Assembly: GCA_037310415.1 (NCBI GenBank)
Contig: CP147780.1
Coordinates: forward strand, 544,001 to 608,000
Length of the DNA stretch: 64,000 bases
Origin: Candidatus Atabeyarchaeum deiterrae
GTDB taxonomy: Archaea > Asgardarchaeota > Atabeyarchaeia > Atabeyarchaeales > Atabeyarchaeaceae
Reading direction: 5' to 3'
Shown here one piece after another: positions 9,704-64,000 of the stretch (position 1 is the stretch's first letter; each line of letters begins with the position of its first letter). Made by a program: the position numbers and the translations under genes. The notes beneath the pieces were generated by a model, which made no database searches, was not told the DNA's origin, and worked only from the letters and a program-made list of their open reading frames with translations.

Positions 9704-10067
9704 GCCTACGTCCTCCAGCCGCGATTTGCAGAATGTTAGAATCTCCTGGTTCTTTGATACCCATGGTTGATGTCATGAATGGTTTTCCACAGGTTGATCC
9801 AAGATCCCATGATGATGATCTAAACTCATATACGGGAATCTGCGACAAATTGCCATAGTATTCGATCTGCGACCGAATATCTTCTGGGCAATTCTTTGCA
9901 ATTATGACGAGTCTGACTTTTCCTTTCTTGACAGCGTTGAGAGTGCTCTCAAAGCCGAAAGTCACTGCGCCTGTTTTGACGGCAATTCGAATAGATTTTG
10001 ATATGTCTTGTTTTTCCGATGTCGTCGGCTGTTCTTGCCTGCTGCTCTTTGGAATACTTTTTGGCAT
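9696..10067 (-). CDS. rpl30e: 50S ribosomal protein eL30
   Basis: AVKTG, IIAKNCP, LGSTCGKPF, PGDSNIL. Confidence 0.96.
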   Translation of the reverse strand: MPKSIPKSSRQEQPTTSEKQDISKSIRIAVKTGAVTFGFESTLNAVKKGKVRLVIIAKNCPEDIRSQIEYYGNLSQIPVYEFRSSSWDLGSTCGKPFMTSTMGIKEPGDSNILQIAAGGRRHE

Positions 10068-10132
10068 TCTGCTACACTTCCTTCAGCATACGTTCTCTTG
10101 TTCCTCCAGAATGACCTGCAAATAGGTTATTG

Positions 10133-11329
<1,197 letters not shown>

Positions 11330-13984
11330 TCACTTCTTGAACTTTTCACCCAGATTCTTCTTCAATATCGCATCTAAGTTGATGGCGTGTCCGTGATAGC
11401 TTTTTGACGGGTCAATACCGTCTTCTCCATACTGGAATTGAACTATTCGGCCCACTGAGGTTCTCACGGTACCGTCGTACTCAACTTTGATGTCCTGAAG
11501 CGCATTGATCAATCGCCGCTGCATGTAGCCACTAGTAGAAGTACGAACGGCTGTATCGACCAGTCCCTCTCTGCCACCCATAGCGTGGAAGAAGAACTCA
11601 ATGGGGGTTAGACCAGTGTAATAGGACGAAGACACAAAGCCTCTGGCTTCAGAGCTGAGGTCTTCTGGCTTGAAGTGTGGGAGGCTTCGCTGCTGGTAGC
11701 CACGCATTATGCGCTCTCCACGAACTGACTGTTGCCCTACACAGGCTGCCATTTGCGCCAGGTTCAGTCTATCGCCTCTAGCCCCGCTTCTCGCCATTAT
11801 GACTGCATAATTTCCCATTCCCAGATATTTGTCAGCTATGTCGCCTGCACCGTCTCTTGCTTCTGAGAGGTGTTGCATAAGTCTCATCTCAAGGGTTTCC
11901 TTAACGCTGTGACCCGGTACAGGCTCCATTTCCCCTCTTCGATAGGCTTCAATGTCTTGATCGACTTCCCTTGCTCCATCATCCAGAATTTCTCTAATCC
12001 TATTTGTAGCCTCTTCTCTAAGCCGAACATCATCTATGCCCATCGTAAACCCTTTTGCAGTTATGAACATGACGAGTAGTCGAGTGATCGAGTCGAGAAA
12101 GACTCTCGCTGCATCGTTGCCGTAACTCTTTATCATGTAGTGATAGATGCTTTCAGGAACCCCAGCGCCAAAAGCGTTCTTATCGAATACCCCAGAGATC
12201 AACTTCCCGTTCTTCACTATGCAGTAAGCATCGTAAGTGCACTCTTCTCTTTTGCAGTCCTCGCATTTGTGGCATATTTTCGCCTTCCAAGAATAACTCA
12301 AATCGTCAGGTAAGAGCATGCTGATTATCTGTTTCCCGCTCCACATATCGGGGTTTTTCAGCTCGGGTTCAGGGAGTCCCTTATTGATTCCTGCGGCGTC
12401 AATAAGGCCACACATCTCCTTGAGAGTCAAGTAGCTACCCTTCTTCGTCAGAAGGTACCCAGCGGAGATGTAGTCCTGAATACCACCTATAATAGGGCCA
12501 CCGTATCTGGGTGAGAGAATCTGTTCTTGAACACGCATCAAGGTCTTTGCTTCTGCCCGAGCTTCCTCACTCTGAGGAACATGCAGATTCATCTCGTCAC
12601 CATCGAAGTCTGCATTGTAAGGTGGACAGACACACAGATTCAGACGAAAAGTCTTGTAGGGCATGACGCGCACTTCATGAGCCATGATGGACATGCGATG
12701 AAGTGAGGGCTGTCTGTTGAAGAGCACTATATCTCCATCTTTAAGATGGCGTTCCACAACAGAACCAGGTTCGATCGCGTCTCCTATCGAGTCAAGGTCC
12801 TTAACGAATCTCAAATCTACTCTTCTGCCATCCATGCGAATGACATAGTTGGCCCCTGGATGACCCTCGGGACCATTTCTGACTAGTTTCTTTGTCTCCT
12901 CAATGTTCCAGTTTGTAACACGTTCAGGAATTGTCAGGATCTTTGCTACTTCAAGGGGCACGCCGACATCGTTGATGCTGATGTTTGGATCAGGCGAGAT
13001 AACTGTCCTAGCAGAAAAGTCGACACGTTTTCCTGAGAGGTTGCTTCTGAACCGCCCTTCTTTCCCTTTAAGACGCTGCGCCAGTGTTCTCAACGCCCGT
13101 CCTGATCTGTGCCTCGCCGGCGGTACGCCTGAAACTTCATTATCGAAGTAAGTTGTCACATGATATTGAAGCAATTCCCATAGATCCTCAACAATTAGTT
13201 GGGGTGCTCCAGCATCAATGTTCTCTTTGAGCCTCTGATTTATGCGAACTACATCGACAAGTTTGTGGGTTAGATCATCTTCCGACCTCACTCCAGACTC
13301 GAGTGTAATTGAGGGACGAACAGCAATCGGAGGAACTGGAAGAACTGTCAGAACAGTCCATTCGAGTCTAGCGCTTCTGGAGTTGACTCCCAAAAGTTTC
13401 TGATCTTCGTCGGTTATTCTTTCGAGTCTGTCCCTCACATCGCTGGAGGTGAGCCTCACTGGCCCAGCTTCTGTCTCTTCGGTGAATGATGTGGGTTTCT
13501 CAAATCCTATCTTGCGTTGGGTCTCACCACAGTGAGGGCATTGACTTACCCGTATTGCGTGTTTTACGATCTTGTCGGTGATGTCAGAGTTAAGTTCATT
13601 CCAAGTTTTCTCGTGCTCATCCATTTCTGTTCGAAGCTTCTCCAACTCGGCATCTGACATGAGAATCCGACTGCACTTTCTGCAAGTCGACCTTAATGCT
13701 TTGTATGTCAGTTTGTTGAATCCAACGTGTATGACTGGCCTTGCTAGTTCAATGTGACCAAAATGCCCTGGGCAATCACCGACGCGGTTACCACACGTCT
13801 TACATCTCCGACCTGGCTCAACTGTGCCGAGTCTGGAATCCATTAATCCAGAGTCTATCGGCAAGCCATCTTCGTCATATGTATCCGCCGTGATTATTCT
13901 GGTAACAGAGAGTTTTCTGATTTCATCCGGCGAAAGAAGACCAAATCTTATTTTCTCAATAATCTTCGGTACGCGTGACGCCAA
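11330..13984 (-). CDS. rpoA1: RNA polymerase subunit Rpo1N (A')
   Basis: catalytic NADFDGDEMN; no intein. Confidence 0.98.
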   Translation of the reverse strand: MASRVPKIIEKIRFGLLSPDEIRKLSVTRIITADTYDEDGLPIDSGLMDSRLGTVEPGRRCKTCGNRVGDCPGHFGHIELARPVIHVGFNKLTYKALRSTCRKCSRILMSDAELEKLRTEMDEHEKTWNELNSDITDKIVKHAIRVSQCPHCGETQRKIGFEKPTSFTEETEAGPVRLTSSDVRDRLERITDEDQKLLGVNSRSARLEWTVLTVLPVPPIAVRPSITLESGVRSEDDLTHKLVDVVRINQRLKENIDAGAPQLIVEDLWELLQYHVTTYFDNEVSGVPPARHRSGRALRTLAQRLKGKEGRFRSNLSGKRVDFSARTVISPDPNISINDVGVPLEVAKILTIPERVTNWNIEETKKLVRNGPEGHPGANYVIRMDGRRVDLRFVKDLDSIGDAIEPGSVVERHLKDGDIVLFNRQPSLHRMSIMAHEVRVMPYKTFRLNLCVCPPYNADFDGDEMNLHVPQSEEARAEAKTLMRVQEQILSPRYGGPIIGGIQDYISAGYLLTKKGSYLTLKEMCGLIDAAGINKGLPEPELKNPDMWSGKQIISMLLPDDLSYSWKAKICHKCEDCKREECTYDAYCIVKNGKLISGVFDKNAFGAGVPESIYHYMIKSYGNDAARVFLDSITRLLVMFITAKGFTMGIDDVRLREEATNRIREILDDGAREVDQDIEAYRRGEMEPVPGHSVKETLEMRLMQHLSEARDGAGDIADKYLGMGNYAVIMARSGARGDRLNLAQMAACVGQQSVRGERIMRGYQQRSLPHFKPEDLSSEARGFVSSSYYTGLTPIEFFFHAMGGREGLVDTAVRTSTSGYMQRRLINALQDIKVEYDGTVRTSVGRIVQFQYGEDGIDPSKSYHGHAINLDAILKKNLGEKFKK

Positions 13985-53168: not shown

Positions 53169-56100
53169 GTGCTTCTGGAGGACATCCTCTATAACTTGCT
53201 TGTTTTCTTTGTTGGGATACCTGTTGCGGTTCTCTTTTTGTTGCTGGTTTTGTGTATTGCTTTCAAGTCTGCTCGCGGGTCCGTTTCTCACCTCGCTCGG
53301 TGGATGCTTCACGGCTTGGGGGTCTTGACACCGTACATGATCGTGGTGGTATTTGCGCTTGGTGTTGGAATTGCATGTTTCCATGTGCTGGTGTTTAGCA
53401 GTGAGTTGGTGAGGTTAACTCTCAGTTGTGCTGTTACTCTTTTGGTGTCTTACTCGATTCTCGCCTTGGCTGTGATGCATGCTAGGTGGTCGTCGAGTTT
53501 GGTAAAGTTCGTCGCGTTCTCATGTTTCTTCGTTATATTGATGGATGTTCTTGTTGGGTTTCTTGTGAGTGATGATTTGGTTCGGGTTTTGGCTTCTTGG
53601 GGTTCTTCTGTGTTTCTCGGGTGGCTTCTTCTCTATGAGAGGGATACTCTGAGGGCTTCAATGGGGTCCTTGAAACTAAGGATTAGGAAGCCTAAAGGTG
53701 ACGTGGAGCCTACATCTTTTGGCAATAGGGATCGTGAGTTGCCTGCAAATGGGAGCGGAGGAAGGAGTAGCGAGAGTGGGGGTTGTGAGGTTGGGTCAGT
53801 TGAGGTTGTCGGTATCCCTGAGAGTTACTTCTTCGGGAAGGTGGGGAATCGGAGAGACGGAGAAGCCGAGGGGTCCGGAGACGAAGATATTGCGGCTAGG
53901 TTTCGTGGATTCGCGGTGTCCCTGATTGAACATGGGTGCACCTTCGCGTTTAGCCAGGTTTACCATGGGGGTCGTGGGAGGTTCTTCATTCAGTGTAAGG
54001 AGCAAGATAGGTCTAAGCTTGCGCGGTTGGTGGAAGGTGTTGATGCATCTTTACATTCTTGGTTCCCCGATTTTGACACGAAGATACGCTACGGGGATGT
54101 TGAGTCTTCATTGGGTGGCGGGAGGCATGCTTGTGGTTGGGTTTCGAATCTGCCAGCTCCTTCGAGGAATCCTGTGAAGTATATTGCTGAGTTTTTTGTT
54201 CAGAGGAGGCTTACTGGTTCTGTGGTGGTGGTTGCTGAGGGGAGCACATCTTCTCTTTCATCTTTCGTGAAGAGGGGGCGTTATGGGAGGTTGTCGGCTA
54301 AGGCTGCGAGGCAGGAGCAGCAGAGCCCCATCGTGGGAGTGCACAACAAATCCACTATTACCAGTCGATCGAGTTGGGGTGCTGAGAAGGAGTTGAAGCA
54401 TTTAGGGACCGAGCTTGAGAGGTTGGGTTCGAAGCTGCAGGCAAAGTGTTGGATTACACTGACATGTGAGAGCTCCACGAGTGAGGAGGCTGAGATGGAT
54501 CTGGATTTGGTGCTTAGGACATTTGTGGGGGCGTTTAGTTTTGAGGAGGAGCGCCATGAGATGCGTTTTGGGAAGTTTCCCAGGAGGCAGGCTGAGGTTG
54601 TTTACCGCGCTACATCCAAGTTGAGTCCCCGGGGTAGGAGTACGGTTTTGCTGCCTTCTGATTTGGCGTTGTATTTTTGGTTGCCTGAGATGGACTCGGT
54701 TGCTCGGGTGAAGAGGAAAGGCGGTTTCTTAGCTCCTACTGGAGAGGAGGTTGAAGGTGGGGAGATTCTACTTGGTGGGGTTCTTCGCCATGGGTGTGTG
54801 TCGGATGTTGAGGCTCGCCTCACGCTTGGTGATTTGGCTCGCCACTGTTTGGTTGTGGGTTCCACTGGGAGTGGAAAGACGTGGACGACATTGTCCATAG
54901 CGATGGCTTTGCATCGGCTTGGGGTTCCTTTTTTGGTGCTTGATCCTGTGAAGAAGGAGTATAGGTGTTTGGTTGGCGCTGTTCCTGGGTTGCGTGTCTT
55001 CACGGTTGGGGATGAGGGTGTTGCGCCTTTTCGCTTCAATATTCTTGAGGTTCCCTTTGGAGTTAAGGCGCAGAAGCATGTTGACTTGGTGGAGGATGCT
55101 TTGTGTGCTTCTATTGTGATGTATCCTCCTGCGCCCTATGTTTTGCACATGGCTTTGAATCGCACTTACAGGGAACATGGTTGGGACTTGACATATGGAG
55201 AACGTGGTGGAGCTGTGTCTTTGCGTGATTTGAGGCGGAGTGTGAGGGACGTTGTTGTCGAGGAGGGTTACGAGGGTGAGCCGAGAAGCACTATTATTGC
55301 GGCTTTGAATACTCGGTTTGAGAGTTTATCTGTAGGTGGTAAGGGAGCGGCCCTGTGCAGCAGGGTATCCATGTCTCCTCAAGAGTTGATTGCTAATCCG
55401 ACTGTGGTTGAGTTTGGTGAGATGGGGGCGCAGGAGGATCGCGCCATGGTTATCCTCATGGTGCTATCGTCCATCTACGAGTATCTGCAGACACTTGGAC
55501 CAACATCTAAGCCCAGGTGCGCCATCATATTGGAGGAGGCCGGCTCACTCTTCGGCAACGTTGGCGCTAAGGGTGGAGCAGAATACGATTCTAAGGAATC
55601 TAGGAGAAAGGCGATTGAGGTTATTTCACGCATTACCGCTGAGATTCGCTCCCTTGGTGGCATGATTATTTTTGTGAATCAAAGTGCAGTTGGCTTGCCG
55701 CTTGAGGTGACCGAGAATACTTCCACGAAGATTGTGCATCAGGTTGCGGATGATGAGGATGCGGAGAAGGTTGCACGCATGTTCGGGTTAAATGAGGAGC
55801 AAAAACGTGCGCTTGCGAGTCTGGAGGTTGGTAGGCCTGTTATTAAGACGCCAAATGTGAGTCACCCGTTTCAGGTTGAGGTAACTCCTGTGACGAGTTA
55901 TGGGGTTGACCCTACCAAGTTTGTTACGGATGAGGAGTTGAGGAGGTACATGAGGGCGACGTTCTATGATGCTAACCCGCAGTATCTTAAGGCGAGTGTG
56001 ATGACGCCCACTGAGAAGACGCCAACATCGGCTCCGAGTGTGACCGTTTCCGTTGTGAATGGAGGCAGGCTAGCTGAATCAATTGTAGCTCGGGCAGACT

Positions 56101-56363
56101 TTGAGGCAAAGTTTTGTAAATCTGTGGGGAGACATCACGAGGGTGAGGGTGTGAAGGCGGTTGTGAAGCTGCTTATTGCGGAGGCTTCAAGGTATACGCG
56201 GAAACGTAAGGAGGAGGAGACGCTTGCAATGGAGATCCTCAACAGAGCTAATGACAAGTACTGCGTGAACCTGAGACCGGAAGTACGCAGGAGAGTCAAC
56301 GTGTTGGTGAAGAGGGAACTGATGGCTGACCTGCAAACGGCTGGCGGCGTGAGATCTTCCTAG
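53169..56363 (+). CDS. membrane-anchored HerA/FtsK/VirB4-like ATPase (DUF87)
   Basis: About 5 N-terminal TM helices; RHCLVVGSTGSGKT, VLDPVKKEY, IILEEA, AEIRSLG..NQS, NTSTKIVH. Confidence 0.88.
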   Translation: MLLEDILYNLLVFFVGIPVAVLFLLLVLCIAFKSARGSVSHLARWMLHGLGVLTPYMIVVVFALGVGIACFHVLVFSSELVRLTLSCAVTLLVSYSILALAVMHARWSSSLVKFVAFSCFFVILMDVLVGFLVSDDLVRVLASWGSSVFLGWLLLYERDTLRASMGSLKLRIRKPKGDVEPTSFGNRDRELPANGSGGRSSESGGCEVGSVEVVGIPESYFFGKVGNRRDGEAEGSGDEDIAARFRGFAVSLIEHGCTFAFSQVYHGGRGRFFIQCKEQDRSKLARLVEGVDASLHSWFPDFDTKIRYGDVESSLGGGRHACGWVSNLPAPSRNPVKYIAEFFVQRRLTGSVVVVAEGSTSSLSSFVKRGRYGRLSAKAARQEQQSPIVGVHNKSTITSRSSWGAEKELKHLGTELERLGSKLQAKCWITLTCESSTSEEAEMDLDLVLRTFVGAFSFEEERHEMRFGKFPRRQAEVVYRATSKLSPRGRSTVLLPSDLALYFWLPEMDSVARVKRKGGFLAPTGEEVEGGEILLGGVLRHGCVSDVEARLTLGDLARHCLVVGSTGSGKTWTTLSIAMALHRLGVPFLVLDPVKKEYRCLVGAVPGLRVFTVGDEGVAPFRFNILEVPFGVKAQKHVDLVEDALCASIVMYPPAPYVLHMALNRTYREHGWDLTYGERGGAVSLRDLRRSVRDVVVEEGYEGEPRSTIIAALNTRFESLSVGGKGAALCSRVSMSPQELIANPTVVEFGEMGAQEDRAMVILMVLSSIYEYLQTLGPTSKPRCAIILEEAGSLFGNVGAKGGAEYDSKESRRKAIEVISRITAEIRSLGGMIIFVNQSAVGLPLEVTENTSTKIVHQVADDEDAEKVARMFGLNEEQKRALASLEVGRPVIKTPNVSHPFQVEVTPVTSYGVDPTKFVTDEELRRYMRATFYDANPQYLKASVMTPTEKTPTSAPSVTVSVVNGGRLAESIVARADFEAKFCKSVGRHHEGEGVKAVVKLLIAEASRYTRKRKEEETLAMEILNRANDKYCVNLRPEVRRRVNVLVKRELMADLQTAGGVRSS

Positions 56364-56388
56364 TTGGAGAGTTATATTAGATGGTGAT

Positions 56389-58173
56389 GTGGGTCGGGGA
56401 GGATTACTGTATTTGCCAAGGGAGTCTGAAGGGCACGAGCACGTAGAGGATGACGCAGAATCTTCCCTGGGTTCCGATGAACAGGAAGAAGGGAAATGGG
56501 GTGAACTTCGCGAAGAAGCTGAGTTGACGGATGAATCGGCCCTTAGGGAATACGAGGAATCGCTGACAAGTCAGCAAGGGGAGGGGGGAAGAGAAAAAGA
56601 TGCCTCAGAGACCGATGATGAGTCAGTCGCCGTGTCTGAGGAAGAGGAATGGAAGCAATTCGTGGATTCAACTCTCAACGAATATGAGAATTCATTGAAC
56701 GAATCGATAAGAAAAGATGAAGTGGTCAAGGCGACAGAATCACAGGAATCCAGTGCAAATGTGGAGCAAAGAAGCCAGACAACTGAAGGGGAACCCCAAC
56801 AAATCGATGAGCCCACTAAGCGAGCAGAAGTTCCATCAACCGAACCACGACAAGAACCCAACATGGATAGGGATAACGAAGCGGACGGAGTAAAGGTGAC
56901 TGATAAGGTCACGGTGAAATTCGATGAGAATGAGGGCCTTACAATAATCTCTGAGAACTTGAACTATAGGATCGCAACTGTGGAGCATGAGACTATAGGG
57001 GGATTGGAATTCGACAGGTACAAGACTAACATGGGAGAAGAGTTTCTACACATACCTAGTGAAAACAAGTTGATCCCACCCTATGAAACGCCATGGTACG
57101 CATTACGTCCAAACACCGAAGTATATCTTGACCTGAGCTACAAAACTGACCGATTGCTGGAGGCGATAAGCAAGGCGGGAGGAGAAGTGGCGTTTCGAAA
57201 GGAGATGAAGGAAAGGGGCGCAATCTTCAGCAACGGAAATGTATACAGGCATCTGCACCAGCAGAGAGACGGCTTGAGAGCCGACAAACTGATTTCAGTC
57301 CTCAAATTTCTGGGAAGGAATCTCGATGAGCCAAACAAACATATCAGAGCGATAGGACATTGCAGGGCAATAGAAAACCCAAAACTACCATTCAGACTCA
57401 ATAACAACGACGGAGCAAGATTGATGGGAGCAAGGTATTCAGACGGAACTAACTCTGCATCGAAGGGACGTGGACCAAGATTCAACTACGCGAACAATGA
57501 CGCAGGGCAAAGAAACAGGATCGTAGAATCCCTGAAGAATGTTTTCGGTGGGGCAAATATACTCAACAGAGAGTACAACACTGGTGAAGTGGCGAAAGTG
57601 CGTACTTCATCAGACATCGTTGGATATGTATTGATGAGAGCAGGAGCTGTGACAGGGGAAATAGTTGACAAGAACCCACACATACCTGTGCTAATACGGG
57701 AAGGGTCTTTGGAAATGAAACGCGAGTGGCTAATCCAAGCATCTGGTGATGAGGGATACGTCTGGCCACAGAAAGGCAAAGTGTGCATAGGAAGAGCGGT
57801 TGAAGCATCAAGCGTTCTGTCCAAGGAGATGACCGATCGCCTTGATGGAATGAGTTGGCAGGACAAGTTCATAAACAGGAGATTTGTCTGTGGCATAAGA
57901 CCATGCAAGGATCTCCCTGGCGACATCTACGGAGTGGTAGAAGGTCATCCACCTAACCTTCTTTTGGAAGAGAAGAAGATGCTCAGTCATTTTGATATTG
58001 AGGCACGAATGTATCCCATAGAGATGCACAGGGGAAAGTATGGCGACTACTCAGCCCACTGGACCCTACAGACAGAGACAAGGGAAGATGGAAGACGATT
58101 CGCCGAAAAGATCGGGTTCCCCCAAGAAAGAAAACAAAAGAAGGCAGTTTCAGTCCTAAGACTCGACAGGTGA
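56389..58173 (+). CDS. acidic N-terminal region fused to an intein-type (DOD) LAGLIDADG endonuclease domain
   Basis: ARLMGARYSDG and KREWLIQASGDEG motifs, HIPVLI, FAEKIGF..ERKQKK; no Hint splicing motifs. Confidence 0.72.
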   Translation: MGRGGLLYLPRESEGHEHVEDDAESSLGSDEQEEGKWGELREEAELTDESALREYEESLTSQQGEGGREKDASETDDESVAVSEEEEWKQFVDSTLNEYENSLNESIRKDEVVKATESQESSANVEQRSQTTEGEPQQIDEPTKRAEVPSTEPRQEPNMDRDNEADGVKVTDKVTVKFDENEGLTIISENLNYRIATVEHETIGGLEFDRYKTNMGEEFLHIPSENKLIPPYETPWYALRPNTEVYLDLSYKTDRLLEAISKAGGEVAFRKEMKERGAIFSNGNVYRHLHQQRDGLRADKLISVLKFLGRNLDEPNKHIRAIGHCRAIENPKLPFRLNNNDGARLMGARYSDGTNSASKGRGPRFNYANNDAGQRNRIVESLKNVFGGANILNREYNTGEVAKVRTSSDIVGYVLMRAGAVTGEIVDKNPHIPVLIREGSLEMKREWLIQASGDEGYVWPQKGKVCIGRAVEASSVLSKEMTDRLDGMSWQDKFINRRFVCGIRPCKDLPGDIYGVVEGHPPNLLLEEKKMLSHFDIEARMYPIEMHRGKYGDYSAHWTLQTETREDGRRFAEKIGFPQERKQKKAVSVLRLDR

Positions 58174-58179
58174 GGAAGT

Positions 58180-58488
58180 ATGGTTGATGATAGAGAAATG
58201 GTAGAAATGATTAAGCAAGCATATGAAGAGCTAAAGACCCGAGATATTGGAAAAGAGGAACTACTCGATTGGCTGAAAAGAAACGGTCTGACACTGGAAC
58301 AGGCGTCAATGGCCATCCACCTAGCCATCCAACAGGGTTTAATCCGATTTTGTTACCCACCCTCTGTTTGCGGAGAAGAACCAGTTCCAAGTTACGAAAG
58401 GATCACAGAAGAAGATCTGCTCCCGCCTGAACTACTGGAAGAAATGCGTACAAGAATTTTCGAAGAGAGTGTAGAGCGACGAAAATGA
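58180..58488 (+). CDS. small acidic protein, possible winged helix
   Basis: 102-aa ORF immediately downstream with a GGTGAGG RBS. Confidence 0.6.
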   Translation: MVDDREMVEMIKQAYEELKTRDIGKEELLDWLKRNGLTLEQASMAIHLAIQQGLIRFCYPPSVCGEEPVPSYERITEEDLLPPELLEEMRTRIFEESVERRK

Positions 58489-58754: not shown

Positions 58755-60014
58755 TCATGGGTTCTGTCGCCGCGCTTGTTCAAGCCTCGGATTCCAACAA
58801 GTTGACGGAGGCATATGAATTTCATCAGGAAACCATGCATCGCTCACCATTTTCAACACTTCCTCCTTGGGAAGAGCCCTCGCTTTCATTGAAAGTTCCT
58901 TGTCAACTCTCTTCCTTTCTAGTGAAGCACTATGGAATCTGAAACCCTGTCGGATACAGATGTTTTGCCTCCTCACATTCCTGCGAAACTGTTTGACTTC
59001 TGCATCTGACCAACTGGGATGGATGAAATAATCTTTCGAAGTTTGGGGATAATAGAAGTCGAAGTTGTCATGCAGCTGACTCACCGGTCGATACCTACAA
59101 TCAGTAATCTGGACTTTCCATTCCCAACACTTAAGTCGCTTCTTCTCCATCTCCACAAAAGGTATGTCCCAATTGAAAATCATGAAAATCGATATCTCTT
59201 CGGCGTGATAACTGGCGTTCACCAAGATGTCTAGCTGTTTCTTTATCCGCTCAAATTCATCGTAACCCCAATCCCACGCAATTTTTGGGCTGTCAAACCT
59301 TGCTTTCTTTAGAGCCACTGCCAGTTCAGGCCTCTGTTCAAGTATCTTCCCGTCGAACCCACTTTGAGACTCGCAACGAACTACTCTTCCTTTATACTTC
59401 AACCCAGAGATCTCTGTGAGCAATTCATCAATATGCTCATTCATTAGTAAGTTGTTATCATAGAAGACTAGTCTATTGGAACAGAGCTCACGTTTTATGC
59501 TCTTTTTTGAAGTCCGTTTTGGCTCAAGCTTCCACGTGTAACAGAATTTGCACTGGCGGAGACATCCTCGAGTAGAATGAATGATTTGATAGTCAAGTTG
59601 ATGAGGGTTCTGCCTTACCAGTTTGTAATTGGGCAAACAATTCTCCGCCTTGTTATGAAGACCGACATATGGCTTGACCCGAAATCGCCTACACTTTTCC
59701 TTGAAGTCTTCATTGTTAAAGTGAAGAGAAACGTATATTCCGCCGATCCAGATAACACTTTTTGGATAGGCGTTTCTATAAAACGCAACACTATCCCAGA
59801 AGTATGTGCTCCAATACGTAAACAAGGAAGTTATCCATATCTTATCCGGAATGAAACCGACCCGGCAGTTGCCTATTACCAGTTTTAGCCTCGTTGCCCG
59901 CCCACTTTTCTTAATGTACGTTCCAATCTTCAATAGACCGATCGGTAAGAAGTTCTTATGATTTCTGCTCTTTCTTGGAATTGGGAAATCAGGCTCAACC
60001 AATAGTATTCTCAT
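58755..60014 (-). CDS. radical SAM protein with B12-binding-like N-terminus
   Basis: MRILLVEP...PIGLLKI, GGIY, TRGCLRQCKFC (CxxxCxxC), DNN. Confidence 0.9.
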   Translation of the reverse strand: MRILLVEPDFPIPRKSRNHKNFLPIGLLKIGTYIKKSGRATRLKLVIGNCRVGFIPDKIWITSLFTYWSTYFWDSVAFYRNAYPKSVIWIGGIYVSLHFNNEDFKEKCRRFRVKPYVGLHNKAENCLPNYKLVRQNPHQLDYQIIHSTRGCLRQCKFCYTWKLEPKRTSKKSIKRELCSNRLVFYDNNLLMNEHIDELLTEISGLKYKGRVVRCESQSGFDGKILEQRPELAVALKKARFDSPKIAWDWGYDEFERIKKQLDILVNASYHAEEISIFMIFNWDIPFVEMEKKRLKCWEWKVQITDCRYRPVSQLHDNFDFYYPQTSKDYFIHPSWSDAEVKQFRRNVRRQNICIRQGFRFHSASLERKRVDKELSMKARALPKEEVLKMVSDAWFPDEIHMPPSTCWNPRLEQARRQNP

Positions 60015-60018
60015 TAGT

Positions 60019-61029
60019 CTACCCTGTCTCCATTCTTCTTGGTATATGAATTCTGATCTCCATCTCCTTGCATAGGCTCAGAAGCTCCTTCGTGAGATGT
60101 TCAACCTTTGAAAGGTCTCTCTTACTGTTCTTCAACTCGTCTCTTTCCTCTCTTGTAATCGTCTGAACCCGCTTCAGAAGGCTTTCAACACCTTTGATGA
60201 AAACAGAATCTGTCATAGGGAATTTTGCCTTAATCTCGTGATGAACCTGTTCTATATCTTCTCGGCCCTTGAAGACTCTTTTCCTAGCATCCTTGTACTT
60301 GTATACGGTTCCGATAAGCCTTACATCCTGGGCTTTTCTTATTGTTCCATCCTTAATTAGCTCAACAACTTTCTCAACAATCTCTGGATCCGCAACCCTC
60401 CGGATTTCCTGAACCGCCGCATTCTTTACTAACTGTTCGAAGTGGCTGTATTTATCCTTCCTCATTTCTCCGTTCTTGACCATTAACTCAACTGCCTCTA
60501 TTTTCTGCGATATTGAAGCAATATTGTCGCCGGCAACAGCTTCTATCTGTTGCAAAGTCATTTTGTCTTCAACCCTCATCTTGCGGAACAGATTTGCCTT
60601 ATCATATGCATCCCACTTAGCCTTTCCCGCGATGTGCTCCGTGCAAAGCAGTCTGTATATTTCTTCTTGAGAAAGCCTCTCTACAATTACATTGCTCTTG
60701 ATCAACGTCCATTTGTCGTCTCCAGTATCCTTGTGGAGATGACGATAACAACACAATCTTGTGTTTCCTTCTAAGACCTCATGATCATATACTAATACGG
60801 GGTTGATTAACCCCCCATCGTTCTCAATTTGATGATACAACTCGTGAGTCGCGTCCCTTTGCCAAAGTTCCTGATCGATTATGTCATCAGTAACCTGTCC
60901 ACCGTGTTCACTAACAATAGTTGCGATTCTGGGATTTCTTGTGTAGTATCTCAATACGTATATGTCCAGCAACTTGTACTCGTATTTTATCTCCTTTCCT
61001 CTTATCGATAGAGCAATTTGATTTGCCAT
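60019..61029 (-). CDS. ParB/Srx-like domain protein
   Basis: NPRI, GGLINPVLV, VLEGNTRL, W..Y.KA. Confidence 0.8.
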   Translation of the reverse strand: MANQIALSIRGKEIKYEYKLLDIYVLRYYTRNPRIATIVSEHGGQVTDDIIDQELWQRDATHELYHQIENDGGLINPVLVYDHEVLEGNTRLCCYRHLHKDTGDDKWTLIKSNVIVERLSQEEIYRLLCTEHIAGKAKWDAYDKANLFRKMRVEDKMTLQQIEAVAGDNIASISQKIEAVELMVKNGEMRKDKYSHFEQLVKNAAVQEIRRVADPEIVEKVVELIKDGTIRKAQDVRLIGTVYKYKDARKRVFKGREDIEQVHHEIKAKFPMTDSVFIKGVESLLKRVQTITREERDELKNSKRDLSKVEHLTKELLSLCKEMEIRIHIPRRMETG

Positions 61030-61032
61030 TTT

Positions 61033-62529
61033 CTAACCCCCTAAGATCCTGAGCAAGTCAGCTTTCGACAAATAGCTGCGCTTAAATGTAATGCACTCTG
61101 TGTCGCCCAGAGTATATTTCGCGATCAGTTCCTTCTTCTCCAATATCTCATCAGTATATTCATCTATTGTATCTTTAGCGATAATCTTGAAGACCTTGCA
61201 TGGCTTGGTCTGCGTTATTCTGTGGATCCTGTCTTGCGATTGAAGATAGTCATCCATTTTGAAGGTTCGGTCCACATAGATTGCGTTGTTTGCGGAAGTT
61301 AGAGTTAAACCTTCTTTTGCGGCAGCTGGGTTCGCAATCAGCAACTTGCATCGCTCTTCGTTCATGAACTTCTTTACGATGTTGAGACGATCCATAATTG
61401 GAATCTCTCCGAAAAGCATCTGCGCCCCAAATTCCTTGAAACGATTCCTGAGTGTTCTAATGTTTCCAATGAAACTTGTCCATAAGATTGCTTTCTCTTT
61501 TCGCTCCACAACATCACGAACAAGTCTGTTCAAAACCTTGAACTTGCCCGGTTCCTCATTATACTGAATGTTTAACAAGCCTGGGTTGCTAGCGATTTGA
61601 GTAAGTCGGAGTAGTTTAACCAGATAATTGTCTATCTCTTCCTCGATCTTCTCTCCGTCGGAGTTAGAGATCTCATAGTAGAGTTCACTTCTAGCCTTGT
61701 CATAGGCTATTCTTTGCTTAGGCGCAAGTTCGGCGGTTACGTTCTCAAAAGTTTTTTCGGGAAGCTCCAATACATCCTTCGTTCTTCTAATAGAGACTGG
61801 TCTCAAGGTCTCCCTTAACGATTTTAGACTCAATTCGAATTGGCTCATGTCTTGGGCTCCCTTCAAGTCGACCTTGAATCGCTTTTGGAAAGCGTCAAAG
61901 TCGTCTCCAAGTAGCACGCCACCATCCAAGAAATAGAATTGAGACCACAGGTCTTCTGGTCTATTTGCAATTGGCGTCCCTGTGATTATGATCCTCTTTG
62001 CAACAAGACTCCTCAAGGAGATTACAGCTCTTGCTGTCTTCGATTTTGGGTTTTTCATTTTTTGGGATTCATCAAGAACCATTGCGAATCTTCGCTGCCT
62101 CAACAATAGTTCAATGAACTCGGTCTCCTGAATCAGGGATTCGTAGTTGGCTATATAGAAGTGTCCATAGGTTGTAAGCATGCGACCCCGTTGCATTCTT
62201 GAGCCGTCCAAAACTACTGGAAGGAGATTCGAGTGTTTCTCTATTTCGTCTTTCCACATATATAATAGAGACTTCTTACAAATAATAAGCGCACCGTCTA
62301 TCGTTTTCTCCTTCATGTTTCGGCACAGAGCATCGATGACGATTTTGCTTTTGCCCAGACCCTGCTCATCAAACAATGGCACGTCATTGTGAGTGCTGAC
62401 ATAGTCTGTAGCCTCGATCTGATGTTCAAGAGGCTCGGTTTTCGAGGAGAAATCAAATGTGACTTTCTTAATCAGTCTCAACCAACTCCTCAGGAAGCAC
62501 AATGTACGAGACATTAGTAAGTTTTTCAA
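61033..62529 (-). CDS. SNF2-family helicase/ATPase (true start probably near 62480)
   Basis: DEQGLGKS, DESQKMKN, TGTPIANRPEDLW, EGLTLT, QSQDRIHRITQ. Confidence 0.92.
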   Translation of the reverse strand: MKNLLMSRTLCFLRSWLRLIKKVTFDFSSKTEPLEHQIEATDYVSTHNDVPLFDEQGLGKSKIVIDALCRNMKEKTIDGALIICKKSLLYMWKDEIEKHSNLLPVVLDGSRMQRGRMLTTYGHFYIANYESLIQETEFIELLLRQRRFAMVLDESQKMKNPKSKTARAVISLRSLVAKRIIITGTPIANRPEDLWSQFYFLDGGVLLGDDFDAFQKRFKVDLKGAQDMSQFELSLKSLRETLRPVSIRRTKDVLELPEKTFENVTAELAPKQRIAYDKARSELYYEISNSDGEKIEEEIDNYLVKLLRLTQIASNPGLLNIQYNEEPGKFKVLNRLVRDVVERKEKAILWTSFIGNIRTLRNRFKEFGAQMLFGEIPIMDRLNIVKKFMNEERCKLLIANPAAAKEGLTLTSANNAIYVDRTFKMDDYLQSQDRIHRITQTKPCKVFKIIAKDTIDEYTDEILEKKELIAKYTLGDTECITFKRSYLSKADLLRILGG

Positions 62530-62887
62530 GACCGAGATCGACCATTAAGCGCAACAAGATGCTTTCTTCGTTTCTGGGCACTCCGATTATTAGTTCAAAT
62601 CTCAGTCCGGATGTAGCCCCAACAATATTCGAATAGTCCAGCAGTTGCTCTCTAGTTCTTTCTGACAACAAGTCATCTCCAGTTTTTGCCTCGCCAATGC
62701 ATAGCACCTTGGTTTCCATGTTTATGCCAATTACATCTGGTCTGTGTCTACCTATCCTCGGGGGAACATGCACCGCTTCACCATGAAATGTGTAATACTG
62801 CCCATCATATGCGACTGGAGCATACCCCTCCTCCCGCATCTTTCTGCCTATTAGGTCAACAAGCATTCGGTGCATCCGCGATGGCAT
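62468..62887 (-). CDS. small PD-(D/E)xK nuclease-fold protein
   Basis: H..LV N-terminus, RPDVIG...IGEAKT. Confidence 0.72.
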   Translation of the reverse strand: MPSRMHRMLVDLIGRKMREEGYAPVAYDGQYYTFHGEAVHVPPRIGRHRPDVIGINMETKVLCIGEAKTGDDLLSERTREQLLDYSNIVGATSGLRFELIIGVPRNEESILLRLMVDLGLEKLTNVSYIVLPEELVETD

Positions 62888-62891
62888 GTCT

Positions 62892-63989
62892 TCAACTCAC
62901 TTCGAACTTCTTAAACATCTCTGCTATACTCGAAATTTGTTTATATAGCTCGAGAATCAGTTCCTTCTTCTTTGGCTCCTCGCCTGCAACAATGCTCCTT
63001 TCCTCTTCTCGTGACATGCTCTTGAGGCCTTCTATACACTTGTTCATGTGTTCGAACAGTCTCGAAGCATAAGCTGGCATAGACAGACTGAGCTCTTCTT
63101 TTGCGGCGGAGAAACCTTCCTCCTTCAGTACTTTGACAATCTCTTTGTTATCAAACATCTTCTTCAGATCTCGAACGTCTTGAGCACGCACGATCTCCCC
63201 GTTCCCAACCCAATCACAGAAGTCTTTGTCTTCAAGCTCGTGTTTCTTCATTCCATCTATGATCTTCTTGCTCTCGTATTCAACGAAATATGAAAACTTC
63301 GTGAATGGATTGTCTCTGCCTGTGTAGCTTGGCAAAAACTGTTCGGTCATGAGTTTGTATGCTTTTATCCATCTTCTGATGTCGACCAACGAAAGTTTCG
63401 TCGTATCCATAAGTCGCCGTTCGCTGTATCCCCTCTTGTCCCATAGTATGTACAGCATTCTGGCTCTCTCGTAGGCTTGCCAGTCATTCTGTGCGCGTAA
63501 ATGTGCTATGAGGCGGATGAAGTTTCTTGCGCGCTCATCGGTGCCCTCTGGAAGGATCCTTGCCTTGATCTTCGTGTATTCCTCTTTCCTTGGGTACTTG
63601 TCTCTTAATTCTCTGTAGATAATCACTCTTGTGTTGCCATCTATGCACAGATATTTCTCACCTTTCTTCATGACCCAGATCATTTCGACGGCGCCACCGC
63701 CAGCCTCGATGCTGCTCTTCAATCTGTTGTATGCGTCCACATTCTGCTGTTTCAAGAAATAGACCAGGGTTTTTTGATTTGTTGTCTGCCCCGCGCTAAG
63801 ATAGTTGTCTCTTGCGTATCCAATTCTGGGATTCTCTTCATCCAATTCGATCTCGTCTATGGGAATATCATCGATTTCGATCTCTTCTGGCACGCCATCG
63901 ATTGGAACTTCCATTTTGTACCGATCCTTTTCCTCCTTTCTCTCACTCGGCGCCAGAAGTACACTTTTGTCATCAATGTCTTCGGACAA
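62892..63989 (-). CDS. ParB/Srx-like domain protein (paralog of 60019-61029)
   Basis: LDEENPRI, CIDGNTRV, WQAYERA, KFSYFVE, RAQDVR. Confidence 0.8.
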   Translation of the reverse strand: MSEDIDDKSVLLAPSERKEEKDRYKMEVPIDGVPEEIEIDDIPIDEIELDEENPRIGYARDNYLSAGQTTNQKTLVYFLKQQNVDAYNRLKSSIEAGGGAVEMIWVMKKGEKYLCIDGNTRVIIYRELRDKYPRKEEYTKIKARILPEGTDERARNFIRLIAHLRAQNDWQAYERARMLYILWDKRGYSERRLMDTTKLSLVDIRRWIKAYKLMTEQFLPSYTGRDNPFTKFSYFVEYESKKIIDGMKKHELEDKDFCDWVGNGEIVRAQDVRDLKKMFDNKEIVKVLKEEGFSAAKEELSLSMPAYASRLFEHMNKCIEGLKSMSREEERSIVAGEEPKKKELILELYKQISSIAEMFKKFEVS

Positions 63990-64000
63990 CTTGTCACACC

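Follow-up and report, generated by a model that had tools for sequence, protein, structure and literature searches.

A five-gene ParB/SNF2 cassette in an Asgard archaeon, built around a radical SAM enzyme that is shared among restriction-type systems and may mark DNA

We analysed a five-gene operon on the minus strand of the closed 2.76 Mb genome of the Asgard archaeon Candidatus Atabeyarchaeum deiterrae, within a stretch of 64,000 nucleotides (contig CP147780.1, positions 544,001 to 608,000 of the forward strand; hereafter the window, whose numbering is used for all coordinates not preceded by a locus name). The first gene (62892..63989, open at the window end at 64000) encodes a ParB-like protein of 365 or more amino acids with the motifs NPRI and DGNTR (ParB-like 1). 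It is followed by genes for a small PD-(D/E)xK nuclease of 139 aa (62468..62887; RHRPD...GEAKT), a SNF2-family ATPase of about 480-498 aa whose GLGKS, DESQ and TGTP motifs are intact (61033..62529), a second ParB-like protein of 336 aa with NPRI, EGNTR, a helix-turn-helix (HTH) region and a helical C-terminus (ParB-like 2; 60019..61029), and, immediately downstream of the latter and last in the operon, a radical S-adenosylmethionine (SAM) enzyme of 419 aa (rSAM; 58755..60014). Counted upward from the rSAM end, the genes are separated by 4 nt, 3 nt, an overlap of at least 14 nt (between the SNF2 and nuclease genes) and 4 nt, so that open reading frame (ORF) calls and spacings agree with the five tightly packed minus-strand genes described in a prediction made earlier from the letters of this DNA (the original prediction). 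Candidate starts of the SNF2 gene are TTG at 62529 (498 aa), ATG at 62514 and TTG at 62502 or 62481; those of ParB-like 1 are ATG at 63914, TTG at 63989, or a TTG 64 nt past the window end. The original prediction allowed that the operon might run on past the window; instead, only the 5′ end of ParB-like 1 (at most 64 nt) lies outside. Beyond this gene come about 740 bp with no long ORF and then divergent plus-strand genes, and the operon therefore consists of exactly five genes. A sigma-70 promoter and terminator scan gave counts equal to those in shuffled sequences, the sigma-70 model being uninformative for an archaeon.

The SNF2 ATPase was confirmed by Pfam matches above cut-off (SNF2-rel_dom, E 2e-37, 129.2 bits against a cut-off of 24.9; Helicase_C, E 4e-11, 43.7 bits against 23.5), and single-sequence Pfam searches gave no match for the small nuclease or for either ParB-like protein. 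In the nuclease, H6, D28, P50-D51 and E66-x-K68 are invariant among relatives, and its AlphaFold2 (AF2) model (pLDDT 86) has as best neighbours in the PDB NucS/EndoMS, SfsA, YaeQ, McrC, MunI and Hjc, all of them PD-(D/E)xK proteins (E about 1e-3, probability 1.0); the invariant motif and the model neighbours together confirm the assignment. The two ParB-like proteins are paralogues (BLASTP E 9e-12, 22% identity across 281 aa); both carry NPRI and AQDVR, and the family alignment shows NPR, G-N-x-R and H160/W167 to be invariant in both. A profile of 14 ParB-like proteins from cassettes of this kind (type A, or ParB/SNF2, below) matched Helicobacter pylori ParB (4umk, E 5.6e-6, profile positions 62-184) and also the ParB family chains 7bnk, 7bnr and 7o0n, covering the ParB/Srx domain and the HTH. 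Thus the two paralogous ParB/Srx-like genes were recognised correctly from their motifs, and the same is true of all five gene identities in the original prediction.

The rSAM consists of an N-terminal Rossmann/B12-binding-like domain, a radical SAM barrel and a basic C-terminal helical region. Its cluster motif, C151-x3-C155-x2-C158, is invariant across 22 diverse homologues and is kept in divergent and viral members, and many further core residues are invariant in the homologue alignment. The Pfam family Radical_SAM (PF04055) scored 16.4 bits on the window protein, under its cut-off of 29.5, and several homologues have precomputed PF04055 matches; despite the sub-threshold score, the motif and the predicted fold assign the protein to the radical SAM superfamily. 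NCBIfam has no family for it, and the family profile found no sequence-level match among solved chains. Its AF2 model (pLDDT 85), aligned over two domains, is closest to AprD4 (Z 22.2), MgmA (Z 21.1) and the group MiaB/MtaB/RimO (Z about 18.5), with TsrM, OxsB, CysS and TokK as further two-domain neighbours; across these enzymes Z is 17-22 over 300-350 residues and identity 8-15%. These enzymes share the fold and the CxxxCxxC motif with the window protein and differ in that its family is found in restriction cassettes and phages, not in biosynthesis. The three N-terminal cysteines of the methylthiotransferases (MTTases) are all missing from the family in the homologue alignment. The protein is basic (isoelectric point, pI, 9.6), as is the family uniformly (median pI 9.3).

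The enzyme had been called "B12-type", which fits its architecture, since a Rossmann-like N-terminal domain is visible in the model, and does not establish the use of cobalamin. The B12-binding family PF02310 gave no match to the window protein at E 0.1, and is precomputed on many homologues. AprD4 has a B12-binding-like domain yet binds no cobalamin, and because this is the best structural match, cobalamin use cannot be read from the fold. Organisms of the candidate phyla radiation (CPR) and DPANN seldom make cobalamin, which, given that many hosts of the family are CPR or DPANN, is a weak hint against dependence on it. We also considered an auxiliary iron-sulfur cluster on C296, C306 and C353, which are conserved in the main clade of the family; a universal cluster of this sort is unlikely, because the three cysteines are missing from a divergent clade that also serves type-A cassettes. 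Two homologues (P0273 and P0255) carry an intein, with a Hint and homing-endonuclease region, exactly within the CxxxCxxC motif.

We ran PADLOC and NCBIfam profiles on the five proteins and searched the full-text literature for the gene combination. PADLOC gave no match for the rSAM or the nuclease, weak domain-level matches for the ParB-like proteins (PDC-M38A, PD-Lambda-5_A) and generic helicase matches for the SNF2 ATPase (ZorD, DpdE, DrmD); no protein of the operon scored above any NCBIfam cut-off. The literature search found no description of a ParB-nuclease-SNF2-ParB-rSAM combination, and the earlier statement that it fits no recognised system thus stands. The ParB/SNF2 cassette is of the modification/restriction kind, built around an uncharacterised rSAM and described in no literature that we found. 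The nearest mention is one line in a 2026 preprint that lists genes for PAACC, an HSP90-like protein and a radical SAM enzyme as a triad of neighbours, which probably corresponds to the GHKL variant described below.

The set is conserved well beyond this genome. Homologues of the rSAM number more than 2000 in a collection of 5.8 billion proteins (the top 120 all more than 50% identical), and the family profile searched against 1.84 billion representatives gave 2237 clusters at E<=1e-3, of which 179 reach E<=1e-30. We retrieved 80 genome loci via the rSAM, called their ORFs and clustered the neighbouring genes. The hosts belong to many archaeal and bacterial phyla and are nearly all anaerobes, many of them CPR or DPANN; seven further loci, from both archaea and bacteria, repeat the order ParB1-nuclease-SNF2-ParB2-rSAM. 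The reverse test began from the small nuclease alone, which retrieved 24 metagenome loci, 14 of them extending far enough. A radical SAM gene stands beside the other four genes in all 14, some of which are near-duplicates, leaving roughly nine independent cases; the rSAM is thus consistently linked to the set, a point on which the original prediction had been prepared to fall. Eleven of these linked enzymes are canonical (45-53% identity; two of them, in L106 and L108, on the opposite strand), and three, of the same architecture, belong to the divergent clade (28%; L099 6950-8005, L102 9990-10781, L103 5646-6752), which also contains the methylase and ParB fusions discussed below. ParB-like 2 was not found in 40 relatives of the host, including two of the same family (one a closed genome), and of 201 genomes of the phylum, 13 carry a member of the rSAM family. 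The cassette is accessory, patchy and horizontally mobile.

The rSAM is not special to this operon, and the original prediction missed its wider role. In the 80 loci retrieved with it, the rSAM is almost always the operon's last gene, and the genes before it form alternative sets. Besides the ParB/SNF2 set (A), these are a GHKL (HATPase_c_3) ATPase, in most cases accompanied by a PP_RS20740-like protein, to which family F12 is homologous (98%, hhalign) (B); DrmA-DrmB-DrmC with a DrmE-like protein (F16, to which family F8 is homologous, 98.9%) (C); PbeA, PbeC and a small protein, anchored by CxC-ABC-ATPase/DndE (D); and, more rarely, a type I-like methylase with an S subunit alongside two unknown proteins, a DndB/DpdB-HEPN fusion, or a HerA-like set (E). 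Set C is DISARM class 2 with the rSAM in place of DrmMII. The rSAM is therefore a portable hub, the last gene in at least five cassette types other than ParB/SNF2.

A maximum-likelihood tree of 91 rSAMs points the same way. The 15 type-A copies need 11 state changes on it; when the labels were shuffled, the mean was 14.2 and the lowest count 11 (29 changes for all types, against 48.6 shuffled). The enzyme is therefore swapped between partner systems almost freely. For example, the window rSAM is 70% identical to the copy in a Pbe-type cassette (L008), its nearest relative outside its own type, and about 50% identical to most other type-A copies. The swapping and this match fit an enzyme with a substrate common to all these systems. 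A ParB-like partner does not stand upstream of the rSAM universally, an idea that we rejected after hhalign comparisons of the type-A ParB profile with PP_RS20740-like/F12, DndE-like F4, DrmE-like, f24, f99/f100 and f33/f18 were all negative. A DpdB-like-HEPN protein directly precedes the rSAM in L032 and L044, and alphaproteobacterial plasmids (e.g., pNL1) combine two DGQHR/DpdB-like genes with a distant rSAM, GHKL ATPases and a PIN-like protein. The plasmid cassette (L124: pNL1, NC_009426.1 112872-127870; L126: an Agrobacterium plasmid) has the order PIN-like, GHKL ATPase, short DGQHR/DpdB-like, rSAM (537 aa), GHKL ATPase, long DGQHR-HEPN-like; it is not a PADLOC system, occurs in aerobes, and forms a deep parallel to the theme of two ParB proteins with an rSAM. 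Tandem rSAM genes were seen in L059 at about 9980-12640 (a Thorarchaeota metagenome-assembled genome) and in another genome of the phylum (G045:C34:40726-43316).

DISARM class 2 normally has a cytosine methylase at the position taken by the rSAM. In CxC-DndE/Pbe systems the usual occupant is a cytosine methylase or phosphorothioation module (PMC10853773). The rSAM variants of both lack such a module and have the rSAM instead. By a scan informed by motifs and Pfam, a recognisable DNA methylase is absent from the fetched flanks of about 68 of about 82 cellular rSAM loci. One family of N4/N6 DNA methylases (PF01555; about 300 aa), whose motif IV has the unusual form HPPY, was seen repeatedly next to rSAM cassettes with four types of partner (L008 9861-10793, L010 6430-7443, L017 624-1538, L037 1436-2350, L060 202-1809, L087 5139-6053), usually divergent from or just downstream of the cassette, and may accompany the rSAM as another portable gene.

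Viruses carry the enzyme alone. In 12 IMG/VR contigs an rSAM (37-48% identity) is found without any partner gene, amid terminase, primase and replication genes, and five of these have a C5 DNA methylase near it; the sister clusters in the ESM Atlas are mostly Uroviricota, and a distant copy is present in a cultured virus, Marinitoga camini virus 1. By analogy, such stand-alone copies show the pattern of phage-borne orphan modification enzymes. Distant members of the family are moreover fused to C5 DNA methylase or ParB-like domains: P0266 joins a full C5 DNA methylase (M.HaeIII, E 4e-30) to the rSAM, P0257 joins it to C5 methyltransferase (C5-MTase) motifs IX-X, and P0218 joins it to a domain homologous to the type-A ParB-like proteins over 296 columns (hhalign 95%, E 2.6e-8). 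In L130 (1710-4853) and L131 (3798-6941) an rSAM-ParB-like fusion of the P0218 type (757 aa) is directly followed by an Mrr_cat nuclease gene, a pair that may be a two-gene miniature of the window cassette. The C5-MTase fusions and the adjacency in phages raised the idea that the rSAM hypermodifies 5-methylcytosine; this cannot be general, and cannot hold here, because nothing in the host's closed genome matches PF00145, the C5 methylase family.

Four described systems share parts of the arrangement. In Dpd, the DNA-modifying enzyme has a ParB-superfamily partner, DpdB, which DpdA needs in order to modify DNA, and restriction is the task of SNF2-type helicases and nucleases; the window SNF2 ATPase matches the PADLOC DpdE profile (E 5e-38, helicase part only), and other members of the rSAM family directly follow DpdB-like proteins. 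Unlike Dpd, which has about eleven genes, the window cassette has five, among them a two-domain rSAM and no DpdA resembling tRNA-guanine transglycosylase (TGT), DpdC or preQ0 genes; none of the five proteins, the ParB-like ones included, matched the DpdA, DpdB or DpdC profiles. DISARM consists of DrmA/B/C with either DrmD and DrmMI or DrmE and DrmMII. It too combines helicase/nuclease restriction with a DNA modifier of its own in a cassette of several genes. Class 1 has an SNF2 protein, DrmD, and relatives of the window rSAM (about 50-65% identical to it) end DrmA-DrmB-DrmC-DrmE-like operons at the DrmMII position; in contrast, profile and methylase-motif scans of the window operon found no DrmA, DrmB (DUF1998/MZB), DrmC (PLD) or methyltransferase, and its SNF2 ATPase scores 24.6 bits on DrmD against a cut-off of 610. 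The best PADLOC match of the SNF2 ATPase is ZorD of Zorya type I (E 2e-56, helicase region 465-883 of 908), and the separate motor and nuclease of the window resemble a split form of ZorD; however, ZorA, ZorB and ZorC are missing from the operon and the flanking genes scanned, the nuclease is a separate protein of 139 aa, and the ATPase scores 84 on the NCBIfam ZorD model, whose cut-off is 1500. Finally, PbeABCD and CxC-ABC-ATPase-DndE systems are restriction cassettes with exchangeable modification modules, either phosphorothioation or cytosine methylases (PMC6459918, Xiong et al., 2019; PMC10853773, Aravind group). The rSAM family supplies the fifth gene of PbeA-PbeC cassettes, whereas the window has no PbeA (HKD-helicase), PbeC (ABC ATPase) or DndE-like gene and has ParB-like, SNF2 and PD-(D/E)xK proteins instead.

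Taken together, the methylase slot, the phage copies, the fusions, the pairing with ParB-like proteins and the basic charge favour a DNA-directed modifier that a ParB-type protein can deliver. We consider it an even chance that the window encodes a DNA-marking rSAM guided by ParB-like 2 and coupled to translocase-nuclease restriction, in a mobile five-gene conflict (defence-type) cassette. ParB-like 2 would bring the rSAM to DNA, perhaps as an NTP-gated DNA clamp or loader in the manner of ParB, DndB and DpdB, and the rSAM would use a radical generated from its [4Fe-4S] cluster and SAM to place a covalent mark on resident DNA, candidate chemistries being methylation at a carbon atom or some other C-H functionalisation of a base. 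Going by the domain identities, ParB-like 1 would recognise or load on DNA, the SNF2 ATPase would translocate, and the small PD-(D/E)xK nuclease would cut DNA that lacks the mark. DNA would thus be the substrate, the mark would mean "self", and the two ParB-like proteins would divide the labour between them. Marking coupled to a translocase-nuclease module was already inferred in the original prediction; it has gained comparative support from the methylase slot, the phage orphans and the distant C5-MTase and ParB fusions, and we keep it as an inference. The wider proposal, to which we give a little less than an even chance, is that the family forms an unrecognised class of DNA-modifying enzymes that would serve as the interchangeable "self" tag of at least six unrelated restriction architectures (ParB/SNF2, DISARM-like, Pbe/CxC-DndE, GHKL/MORC-like, type I-like and DpdB-HEPN), would have been copied by phages to evade them, and in the ParB/SNF2 cassette would be delivered by a ParB-like clamp, by analogy with DpdB and DpdA.

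Several observations weigh against the marking proposal. No target-recognition domain is recognisable in the rSAM, and the enzyme is unusually conserved, at about 50% identity across domains of life, whereas restriction-modification (R-M) methylases diversify. The closest solved structures act on sugar (AprD4), protein (MgmA) and tRNA (MiaB), so that the fold is uninformative on the substrate. The fusions and plasmid cassettes come from distant members (23-30% identity), from which transfer of function is uncertain. A DNA methylase co-occurs with the rSAM in about 14 of 82 cellular loci, members of the HPPY family among them, so that the enzyme does not merely stand in for a methylase. In some loci (L051, L053 and L056) a GHKL-X-rSAM module lies within ordinary type I R-M operons, where it looks more like an accessory or back-up.

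These operons, which already have a methylase, bring in the explanation that survives next best, namely that the rSAM is an effector or back-up arm and no self-marker. After the ATPase/nuclease part had sensed invading DNA, it would make a toxic or chain-terminating nucleotide, as viperin-like enzymes do, or inflict radical damage on nucleic acids, in either case halting replication or killing the cell. Antiviral effectors of the radical SAM superfamily are known (pVips and Ophion OpnA), the rSAM is a terminal, portable add-on to otherwise complete systems, and the 2026 preprint takes its PAACC, HSP90-like and radical SAM triad as a toxin-like effector context. On the other hand, the partner cassettes already have nuclease effectors (PD-(D/E)xK, PLD/HKD, HEPN), lone copies beside phage DNA methylases would be odd for an effector that kills the host, and the fusion to a complete C5 DNA methylase points to DNA modification; nor is the family close to viperin, its best neighbours being two-domain B12-like and MTTase enzymes. 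We regard an effector role as unlikely.

The substrate might instead be a protein, the rSAM acting as maturase or activase of a partner, or the enzyme might be a regulator, a SAM- or redox-sensing switch set against phage SAM-degrading or anti-restriction functions. One homologue is annotated automatically as a pyruvate formate-lyase activating enzyme, the protein methylase MgmA is the second-best structural match (Z 21), and dependence on SAM could tie the system to SAM depletion by phages. This reading is improbable: the rSAM moves between cassette types whose partners have nothing in common, which leaves no shared protein substrate; the lone phage copies have no partner at all; and the invariant CxxxCxxC and core residues argue for catalysis over sensing. 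We likewise see slight chance of a non-immune role in maintenance, partition or DNA repair of a mobile element, with the rSAM processing lesions as does spore photoproduct lyase (a radical SAM enzyme that acts directly on DNA, and a weak structural match at Z about 8.9), since the cassette has no ParA partner or replication genes, its PD-(D/E)xK nuclease and SNF2 translocase are a standard restriction arrangement, and the same rSAM is found in restriction systems, namely DISARM-like, Pbe-like and R-M-like operons, even though ParB-like proteins are classical partition factors, the region lies near atpB, and one phage neighbour matches a "DNA repair photolyase" PHROG.

To our knowledge, SAM methyltransferases, the Dnd/Ssp sulfur machinery and the Dpd transglycosylase account for all the well-studied DNA marks by which prokaryotic immunity tells self from non-self. 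If the rSAM marks DNA, it would add a new chemistry to DNA epigenetics, and a new class of DNA modification, and would explain how DISARM-like and Pbe-like cassettes that have no methylase discriminate between self and foreign DNA. It would also mean that current sequencing pipelines miss a base modification in anaerobes that include Asgard archaea, methanogens and CPR/DPANN organisms. At about 400 aa the family's proteins are small; they are also highly conserved and numerous, forming 2237 clusters at 50% identity, and the ParB/SNF2 cassette is a tractable test case because it has only five genes. Even as an effector, the rSAM would be a notable hub, one module common to many defence architectures and to phages.

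The cassette is flanked by two HerA-like ATPases and by an LmuC/MC2-like and HD pair, with atpB farther out. The two ATPases are of the HerA/DUF87 type (1064 and 1265 aa), lie on either side of the cassette (window 53169-58488, and L002 15693-19490, which is 11.7 to 15.5 kb past the window end), and both give weak PADLOC mad8/HerA matches; the first is followed by proteins of 594 aa and 102 aa with no family matches. Adjoining the operon is a divergent pair (L002 8805-10570) that encodes a 139-aa MC2/LmuC-like protein (PDC-M19A, E 1e-10) and a 444-aa HD-domain protein (HD_assoc_2, with a weak dGTPase match), which may be another small defence module.

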